Assembly: GCA_964016885.1 (NCBI GenBank) | Contig: OZ024740.1 | Location: forward strand, 299,708,001 to 299,772,000 | Origin: Eledone cirrhosa | Taxonomy: Eukaryota | Direction of reading: 5' to 3' | Length of the DNA: 64,000 nucleotides | Shown: positions 55,456 to 58,358 of the stretch, one piece after another | Layout: each line of letters starts with the position of its first letter | How positions within the stretch are numbered: the first letter of the stretch is position 1 | The notes under the pieces: model-generated | What the model was told of the DNA's origin: nothing | The model's database searches: none | The model's input: only the letters and a program-made list of their open reading frames with translations | Program-made: the position numbers and the translations under genes

Positions 55456-56630
55456 TATATATATTTATTGAAATAAGGAACTTGTTCTTTGTTTTTATTT
55501 CGTTGTTTTTATTAATTTATATATATATATATATATATATATATATATGAAAAGAGTCAGGACCACGACGGCTGAGCTCCGGTCGTTTCAACAGCTAGAT
55601 CCGAACGATGTATATATAAATAAGGGAATCGAACTAGAAAAGCTCAGTTGTGCTAGTTCGTTGAACTTACCCATTCGCTCACGGGACTTGCACTTCGGAA
55701 GCGACGGTCCGTGATTCACTGGCGTACACATTCAGTAATTACTGGTAATATACATACATACATACATATATTCATACATATTGAATTGTACACACAACAA
55801 TTATTTTGAAGACTATTTACTGATAAATTATGGAATGAAAGTTGAGGACATAATGTACTATCGACACTACATTTATCCGTATGACGATGAGTTGATAAAC
55901 TATTGGAACGAAATATAAGATAATCTACTATAGAAATAAAATCTATATCTATAGTATTATTCTGCCGCAAGCCCCATAGTAGATATATTGTAATATTGTT
56001 TGTAAGATAGCTGATATAACTATGTATATATAGCTATACCTATATCTATATCTTTCTCTAACTATCGATCGATATATATGTGTATATATATATATATATA
56101 TATATATATATATATATATATATATATATATATGTGTGTGTGTGTGTGTGTGTGTGTGTGTTTACATTTATGTTCAGGCACACAGGCTCCTTTGTATATA
56201 TACACACACACGAACACACAAGCATATATATATATATATATGTATATATATATATAAGTTGGAATAGAATGAAACGAAATTTCATTTCTCACTCTTAGTA
56301 CGGCACTTACTTAAATGTAAGTATGTATGTATACGTACATACATATATGTATACAGACGTACAGTAGCATGTATATATATATATATATATATATATATAT
56401 ATATATATATATATATATATATATATATATATATATATAGAGGTACACATATATATATATATATATATATATACAGGTACACATATATATATATATATAT
56501 GTACGTATCAGTTTAGTGGATATTTATTATAACGCTCGCTTTGTCCGTTTGTAAACAAACGGACAGCCTGATTTATGCCGTACGGTGTTAAGGCAACCAA
56601 GTCACCTTTTTGTTCAACACTGACACAGGA

Positions 56631-56673
56631 ACGATGTACTAGTTTCAAGCTTCCTTGCTATCGTCAGCACCGT
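56631..56673 (-). ncRNA. minimal type I hammerhead ribozyme, copy 1
   Basis: ACGGTG-CTGACGA-TAGC AAGGAA GCTT-GAAA-CTAGTA-CATCGT. Confidence 0.8.
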
Positions 56674-57462
56674 ATACCCTTCTGCCAGATGGTTGAACGT
56701 TCGAAAGTATATACTTTCCTTATGAAAATTAACGGCTGAGCAGCGTAATTTGCATACCAAGTGAGTTCAGTCGGCCAGGCGCACCGAAAACGATAAGTTG
56801 GAATAGAATGAAACGAAATTTCATTTCTCACTCTTAGTAGCGCACTTACTTAAATCTAAGTATGTATGTATACGTACATGCATATATGTATACAGACGTA
56901 CAATAGCATGTATATATATATATATATATACATACAGGTACACATATATATATATATGTACGTATCAGTTTAATGTTGAACAAAAAGGTGACGTGGTTGC
57001 CTTAACACCGTACGGCATAAATCAGGCTGTCCGTTTGTTTACAAACGGACAAAGCGAGCGTTATAATAAATGTCCACTAAACTGATACGTACATATATAT
57101 ATATATGTGTACCTGTATGTATATATATATATATATATATATATATATATATATATATATATATATATATATATATATATATATATATATATATATATAT
57201 ATATATATATATATATATATATATACATGCAACTGTACGTCTGTATACATATATGTATGTACGTATACATACATACTTACATTTAAGTAAGTGCCGTACT
57301 AAGAGTGAGAAATGAAATTTCGTTTCATTCTATTCCAACTTATCGTTTTCGGTGCGCCTGGCCGACCGAGCTCACTCAGTATGCAAATTAGGCTGCTCAG
57401 CCGTTAATTTTCATAAGGAAAGTATATACTTTCGAACGTTCAACCATCTGACAGAAGGGTAT

Positions 57463-57505
57463 ACGGTGCTGACGATAGCTAAGAAGCTTGAAACTAGTAC
57501 ATCGT
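57463..57505 (+). ncRNA. minimal type I hammerhead ribozyme, copy 2
   Basis: ACGGTG-CTGACGA-T-AGCT AAGA AGCT-T-GAAA-CTAGTA/CATCGT; predicted cut after A57499. Confidence 0.82.
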
Positions 57506-57923
57506 TCCTGTGTCAGTGTTGAACAAAAAGGTGACGTGGTTGCCTTAACACCGTACGGCATAAATCAGGCTGTCCGTTTGTTTACAAACGGACAAAGCGA
57601 GCGTTATAATAAATGTCCACTAAACTGATACGTACATATATATATATATGTGTACCTGTATGTATATATATATATATATATATACACATGCTACTGTACG
57701 TCTCTATACATATATGTATGTACGTATACATACATACTTACATTTAAGTAAGTGCCGTACTAAGAGTGAGAAATGAAATTTCGTTTCATTCTATTCCAAC
57801 TTATCGTATTCGGTGCGCCTGGCCGACTGAACTCACTCGGTATGCAAATTAGGCTTCTCAGCCGTTAATTTTCATAAGGAAAGTATATACTTTCGAACGT
57901 TCAACCATCTGGCAGAAGGGTAT

Positions 57924-57966
57924 ACGGTGCTGACGATAGCTAAGAAGCTTGAAACTAGTACATCGT
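57924..57966 (+). ncRNA. minimal type I hammerhead ribozyme, copy 3
   Basis: Identical to copy 2; predicted cut after A57960. Confidence 0.82.
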
Positions 57967-58358
57967 TCCTGTGTCAGTGTTGAACAAAAAGGTGACGTGG
58001 TTGCCTTAACACCGTACGGCATAAATCAGGCTGTCCGTTTGTTTACAAACGGACAAAGCGAGCGTTATAATAAATGTCCACTAAACTGATACGTACATAT
58101 ATATATATATATGTACCTGTATATATATATATATATATATATATATATATATATATATATATATATATATATATATGTACCTGTATATATATATATATAT
58201 ATATATATATATATATATATATATATATATATATATATATATATATACACATGCTACTGTACGTCTGTATACATATATGTATGTACGTATACATACATAC
58301 ACATATATATATATATATATATATATATATATATATATATATCTATATATATACGCAT

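Follow-up and report, generated by a model that had tools for sequence, protein, structure and literature searches.

The closest described systems to the locus considered here are the metazoan non-LTR retrozymes of coral, mussel and axolotl (PMC7229834; review PMC7761336). Their mobilisation by Penelope-like elements (PLEs) was proposed earlier in the same two papers and has been argued for vertebrates from pLTR homology and co-occurrence (bioRxiv 10.64898/2026.07.22.740005). EN+ PLEs themselves leave insertions with an inverted 5'-truncated copy, a tail at one end and a bias towards (TA)n (PMC8557442, section 6). According to a proposal in PMC4209133, PLEs use a circular template, and hammerheads have been called universal in PLEs outside Naiad and Chlamys (PMC8557442). 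As regards cephalopods, the giant squid genome paper gives 235 Rfam hammerhead_1 loci, so Rfam hammerhead hits have already been counted in a genome of this group. In a full-text literature search, judged by titles, the openings of abstracts and selected passages, neither a cephalopod retrozyme nor a retrozyme with the two kinds of ends described below (S and L) was found; an earlier record, for instance in Repbase, in Dfam or among the further invertebrate examples of PMC7229834, is possible. Which enzymes move animal retrozymes and whether the circular RNAs are the true templates are treated as open questions in the literature (bioRxiv 10.64898/2026.07.22.740005, PMC7229834, PMC7761336).

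The window, i.e., the whole 64,000-nt stretch of Eledone cirrhosa DNA that was analysed, contains a locus of two repeat arms arranged head to head and flanked by (TA)n tracts on both sides. We consider it quite probable that the locus represents a single two-armed insertion of a hammerhead-bearing repeat, non-coding and high in copy number, with PLE-like ends, and that a Neptune-type PLE reverse transcriptase (RT) likely copied it from an RNA predicted to cleave itself in dimeric form and then likely circularised. The features of the locus are as follows.

56224-56256, strand unassigned: left (TA)n target tract
56254-56975, minus strand: inverted, 5'-truncated arm of about 1.4 units, outer end at 3' site L, in (TA)n
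56631-56673, minus strand: type I hammerhead differing in loop II, with the cut predicted between 56637 and 56636
56974-about 58300, plus strand: direct arm of about 2.5 units, outer end at 3' site S, in (TA)n
57463-57505, plus strand: type I hammerhead, 43 nt, predicted cut after A57499
57500-57960, plus strand: predicted 461-nt monomer between two predicted cuts, self-paired in folding
57633-57685, plus strand: internal (TA)n block, the length of which sets the unit size
57746-57804, plus strand: internal copy of the 'tail' of about 60 nt between 3' sites S and L
57842-57849, plus strand, also at 57381 (plus) and 56748 (minus): octamer ATGCAAAT, in every complete unit
57924-57966, plus strand: type I hammerhead, 43 nt, predicted cut after A57960; the pair 57927/57963 covaries
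58058-58081, plus strand: hairpin in which five pairs differ on both sides among copies; the window copy has mismatches
58301-58353, strand unassigned: right (TA)n target tract

The right edge of the plus arm is approximate because the arm merges into the TA tract. The insertion has its L end on the left and its S end on the right, and its outer tail (56254-56312) is present at one outer end only. Units at the locus are 461-543 bp long, varying due to the internal (TA)n tracts, and have a GC content of 37.5%; Tandem Repeats Finder (TRF) gives a period of 461 with 96% matches. The longest open frame in the unit has 55 codons, and no ORF with RT or GIY-YIG was found in it. The octamer ATGCAAAT, located about 110 nt before the predicted cut, is kept in 38 of 43 aligned copies, where about 0.013 are expected by chance. 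It is possibly a promoter element, perhaps of the snRNA type, as in newt satellite 2. A literature search gave no confirmation of the link with the newt promoter.

The insertion is adjoined on the right by a SINE-like repeat (58357-58690, plus strand) with a tRNA-like head at 58368-58425, which scores 28.1 bits with the Rfam tRNA model, below the gathering threshold of 29, and is not called by ARAGORN. At 63243-63471 (minus strand) there is a copy from a divergent subfamily (82% identical); it is 5'-truncated, lacks the hammerhead and ends near site L in a TA tract. Broken frames of a Ty3/Gypsy-type LTR retrotransposon occupy 30898-34634 (minus strand), the named relatives of the RT being mixed invertebrates, and several LINE fragments are present elsewhere in the window. 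Rfam matches to miRNAs were rejected as microsatellite artefacts.

Each motif consists of a 6-bp stem I with one G-U, a CUGACGA/GAAA core, a 4-bp stem II, a GUA triplet and a palindromic helix III (ACUAGU) of 1-2 bp, which is predicted to be stable only in a dimer. It is open at helix I, which covaries, and helix II is near-invariant. The two plus-strand copies are identical to each other. The base of stem II is U-U in 102 of 109 copies and not the usual G10.1-C11.1 pair. This does not exclude membership among hammerheads, because the active HHR_Amex2 of axolotl has the same mismatch (PMC7229834). The earlier note had placed one hammerhead in each complete unit, and a pattern search located three type I motifs, in agreement with its coordinates, pairings and predicted cuts; its tandem array also stands, as 461-543 bp units in two arms head to head, with the numbers of units changed from 1.3 and 2.6 to about 1.4 (minus) and 2.5 (plus). 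Its label of a 'minimal' hammerhead is replaced: by the definitions of PMC4209133, where the 'canonical' metazoan type I form has a helix I of 6 bp, a helix II of 4 bp and a palindromic helix III of 1-2 bp, the predicted motif belongs to that canonical form. The Rfam check suggested there brought no hit above threshold: no hammerhead family appeared at E<=5 in a scan of 7 kb, and a scan of 111 nt gave only Hammerhead_HH9 (15.3 bits, E 0.17, gathering 52). As to activity of such motifs, only one of nine predicted retrozyme dimers of Xenopus was cleaved in vitro (bioRxiv 10.64898/2026.07.22.740005).

A loose core pattern matches the window 15 times against 3.8 expected. The matches at 55139-55350 fall into what appears to be a decayed retroelement and seem to be incomplete as hammerheads. 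At 37864-37904 and 38521-38561 (plus strand) there are two hammerhead-like cores, related to each other and with a long stem II; TA follows directly on each, and they are probably pLTR fragments of another PLE family. A hammerhead-like motif of a further family lies at 60609-60631 (minus strand), and its relatives recur in the flanks of several sampled loci. In addition, locus L093 carries at 6491-7731 a different hammerhead tandem family with five copies of a 310-bp unit, in which stem II likewise has a U-U at its base and helix III is palindromic.

The repeat family is high-copy and dispersed, without apparent LTR structure. In the host genome of 3.0 Gb, exact matches number 12,859 for a 35-nt hammerhead pattern and 13,728 for a 22-nt tail anchor located elsewhere in the unit, these figures being counts of motifs and not of insertions; the reversed controls gave none in both cases. 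A DNA search of the unit against the genome, proposed in the earlier note, found full-length matches 97-100% identical on many contigs among the 40 that were scored out of 3055 candidates. A sample chosen independently of the ribozyme (loci L111-L197, picked among the first 100 matches of the anchor on contig C1) contains several subfamilies 76-96% identical to the window copy. Contigs of four runs, the kind of which is unstated, contained many variants in the case of organism A, five short pieces in X5 and nothing in X4, a result uninformative on expression. A search of metagenome contigs with the motif pattern gave no match.

Conservation of the core was proposed in the earlier note as a test of the ribozyme, and its outcome is mixed. 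The core is intact in 88 and damaged in 16 of 104 sampled copies, and changes found in single copies are as frequent inside the core (23/1284 cells, 1.8%) as outside it (380/18313, 2.1%), as expected for neutral decay after insertion. On the other side, changes at the level of subfamilies avoid the ribozyme. With a site counted as variable when its second allele reached 10% or more in 132 de-duplicated segments (141 before removal of overlaps), 4 of 43 hammerhead sites are variable versus 54 of 234 outside (Fisher p=0.042); for the core alone the value of 0/12 is not significant (p=0.074). The four variable hammerhead sites are N7, one base of loop II and both sides of one stem I pair. The states of this pair are G-U 42, U-G 34, A-U 22 and other 6 (n=104), so that pairing is kept in 98 of 104 copies, counts which represent few subfamily-founding events; in its G-U states, it is the hammerhead strand that is favoured.

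Without prompting, RNAalifold finds stems I and II in an alignment of 43 copies, comprising the window copy and 42 of 45 full-length locus representatives (three with deletions or damage were omitted). The named hammerhead structure is paired in 97.3% of the cells of this alignment, a value reached by none of 500 shuffles, a control that ignores relatedness, and all slid controls are lower. The 461-nt monomer folds at -143.3 kcal/mol (z -6.7), and its microsatellite-free part has a z of -4.0. For the monomeric motif, the active fold has -1.1 versus an MFE of -8.7 kcal/mol, and the double hammerhead has -19.0 versus a cofold MFE of -19.8 kcal/mol. Thus, these folding models favour the active hammerhead in the dimer and not in the monomer. 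Within the complete dimer transcript of the window, the intermolecular stem III has a probability of 0.06 and the cross stem I pairs have 0.18-0.58. Dispersed high copy number, absence of coding capacity, a structure conserved between subfamilies and a dimer favoured in folding support the interpretation of the repeat as a retrozyme given in the earlier note. On these sequence features, its assignment to metazoan non-LTR retrozymes, a class already known, appears well supported by the genomic criteria of the class.

Insertions of the family terminate at two fixed 3' sites, S about 245 nt and L about 305 nt after the cut. Counting gave 86 L and 87 S ends, with a TA tract at 79 and 68 of them, respectively; the total of 147 in 173 ends running into TA is a raw count without a genomic background rate. 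All 50 two-armed insertions with both outer ends called, those with an uncalled end having been omitted, have one S and one L, and accordingly the tail at one outer end only. The insertions are 5'-truncated at variable points, carry an inverted 5' arm and form arrays of up to 10 consecutive whole units in head-to-tail order. The retrozyme ends therefore match PLE anatomy in truncation, inversion, the one-ended tail and (TA)n targets, the last being a bias of Neptune and Naiad.

Coding elements with RT, CX4CxxC and GIY-YIG are present in the same genome, with open frames of up to 1096 codons; they are called Neptune-type on the basis of the linker, not of a tree. The named relatives of a PLE protein from this genome are mostly bivalve. 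Three Neptune-type families have the two-end pattern with ends about 40, 45 and 65 nt apart, the ends having been counted and not paired. Young Neptune-type ORFs occur in the families of loci L094, L095 and L097, and of these the L095 family, at about 65 nt, comes nearest to the retrozyme in the length of its tail. In one Neptune-type family, a hammerhead is located about 350-410 nt after the ORF in seven of eight loci, and it has a U-U at stem II and a palindromic helix III like the retrozyme motif. No hammerhead core was found in the 3' regions of the young Neptune-type families of loci L061, L067 and L095, the tails of which have a short ACTCGTG-like word in common. When PLE 3' regions were compared with the unit by local BLAST and the profile of alignment A1, the 68 loci from 9 families, drawn from 10,595 first-look candidates, contained no homologue of it; the unit profile matched such regions only where a whole retrozyme element had inserted adjacent to them. 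Short pyrimidine-rich likenesses between the L end of the unit and the inner ends of two Neptune families were noticed by eye and are not counted as evidence. Taken together, the S and L ends, the (TA)n targets and the matching ends of coding PLEs speak for the Penelope mobilisation suggested in the earlier note, and a PLE-mobilised retrozyme is, in our opinion, very likely.

Concerning the template, the sequence continues past the cut in 145 of 146 motifs, the single exception being an internal deletion, and only three motifs genome-wide run into TA at the cut. Alignments crossing the cut site number 152. The 5' ends are evenly spread, with 5 of 106 truncations at the cut versus about 5.7 under a flat spread. 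RT neither starts nor stops at the ribozyme cut, and therefore the template was continuous across it, either re-ligated or uncut.

A private allele is present in all units of 16 of 57 multi-unit insertions, the other 41 having no such allele, and is common to both arms in 12 of 38 insertions versus 17 of 2000 unrelated pairs. G57840 is common to all three window copies. Most private alleles (179) are those of single units, which speaks against a circular monomer as the template. It appears from these alleles that units of one insertion often descend from one template unit. Gene conversion, local amplification or homogeneous source arrays could explain this sharing as well. Young arrays are nearly uniform, the inverted arm included, and four units of the L200 array show no differences, while arrays L106 and L108 are heterogeneous, with variants common to non-adjacent units, and thereby also speak against a circular monomer. 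In the long array of L108 (2230-7734), which has an inverted arm, one inverted unit carries the private variants of one specific internal unit, which suggests a multimeric template or template switching. A nearest-neighbour test within versus between loci (56 of 142 units) was non-discriminating because young near-master copies are closest to everything.

Read-through of the cut, sharing of private alleles and selection on the ribozyme make a circular monomer the simplest reading, and we lean towards it as the main template. Tandem units would be transcribed, and neighbouring hammerheads, as folding predicts, would pair via ACUAGU and release an RNA of unit length, which a host ligase may close into a circle, by analogy with the coral, mussel and axolotl retrozymes. 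A GIY-YIG endonuclease would nick (TA)n, and RT would prime at S or L, where the ends are seen in the genome. It would then pass the former cut site, often going beyond one unit, as the arrays document. Priming of the second target end at the other site may give the inverted arm, consistent with the rule of one S and one L. In its most specific form, which we advance tentatively and rate slightly below an even chance, the genome records how a Neptune-type Penelope enzyme reverse-transcribed, in rolling-circle fashion, RNA circles made by the ribozyme. Each two-armed insertion would then result from two priming events on one circle, at two fixed sites separated by 60 nt, one for each nicked (TA)n end. 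Double priming on one circle, if true, would explain the one-ended tail of PLEs and give the hammerhead a role in retrotransposition.

The main competitor is that the repeat is a non-autonomous PLE and was copied from long linear transcripts that read through source arrays and were largely left uncleaved; the hammerhead would be weak or occasional and a circle unnecessary. Read-through of the cut is accounted for equally by such transcripts, and they agree with the heterogeneity of L106 and L108, including the inverted unit that matches one specific internal unit, with the spread of three Neptune-type families in whose 3' regions no hammerhead core was found, and with the poor in vitro cleavage by PLE hammerheads (PMC4209133). 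However, subfamilies that differ by about 20% have retained the ribozyme fold, which needs a benefit to copying; with a linear template whose 5' end is set by the cut, an accumulation of 5' ends would be expected there, and none such is seen; and young arrays such as L200 are nearly uniform, even in the inverted arm. We regard this explanation as unlikely.

It is even less probable that the units are detached terminal repeats (pLTRs) of an unsampled autonomous PLE, deposited as 5'-truncated copies, in spite of the similarly designed hammerhead after the ORF in seven of eight loci of one Neptune-type family and the relation of Xenopus retrozymes to pLTRs (bioRxiv 10.64898/2026.07.22.740005). 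The copies cycle whole units head to tail, none of the sampled ones was seen to extend 5' into an ORF, and the unit profile met PLE 3' regions only beside an adjacent whole-element insertion. A satellite or foldback element spread at the DNA level, with an incidental or dead hammerhead, would fit the resemblance of the locus to a long inverted repeat and the decay of the core in single copies at the background rate. Against it stand 3' ends that are fixed where the 5' ends vary, the asymmetry of the S/L termini in 50 of 50 insertions and covariation of the G-U type on one strand, and this scarcely plausible explanation is largely refuted already. The PLE-copied retrozyme with a probably circular template thus remains our preferred reading.

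The family resembles the metazoan retrozymes of PMC7229834 in its non-coding tandem units with less than 50% GC and one type I hammerhead per unit, as well as in thousands of copies, a self-paired monomer and the presence of PLEs in the same genome. The U-U at the base of helix II is found also in HHR_Amex2 of axolotl, and the weak palindromic helix III in HHR_Amex1 (PMC7229834). Unlike the reported retrozymes with RNAs of 170-400 nt, the family has a unit of about 420-540 bp with an internal (TA)n (PMC7229834). Two fixed ends and an inverted arm are not described for retrozymes in the relevant passages of PMC7229834 and PMC7761336. Linear and circular RNAs of unit length are a mark of the metazoan retrozymes (PMC7229834); for the window family they are predicted. 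The proposal of mobilisation by PLEs is common to this family and to vertebrate retrozymes, as is the occurrence of monomers, dimers and multimers (bioRxiv 10.64898/2026.07.22.740005). The argument is based here on insertion anatomy and there on pLTR homology and co-occurrence, in a sample with no mollusc (bioRxiv 10.64898/2026.07.22.740005); in contrast to the vertebrate case, a homologous pLTR was not found here in the 68 loci of 9 PLE families. Since thousands of young insertions that obey a strict two-end rule occur in one genome together with young candidate partner PLEs, the questions of the enzyme and the template become directly testable.

With the Neptune and Nematis EN+ PLEs (PMC8557442, PMC4209133), the family shares 5' truncation, partial tandems, an inverted 5' copy, a one-ended tail, (TA)n and a type I hammerhead near the 3' end. 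It differs from EN+ PLEs in the lack of an ORF and in the canonical short-helix-III form of its hammerhead. The tail is about 60 nt in the retrozyme versus 30-40 nt in PMC8557442, and the coding families of the same genome have about 40-65 nt.
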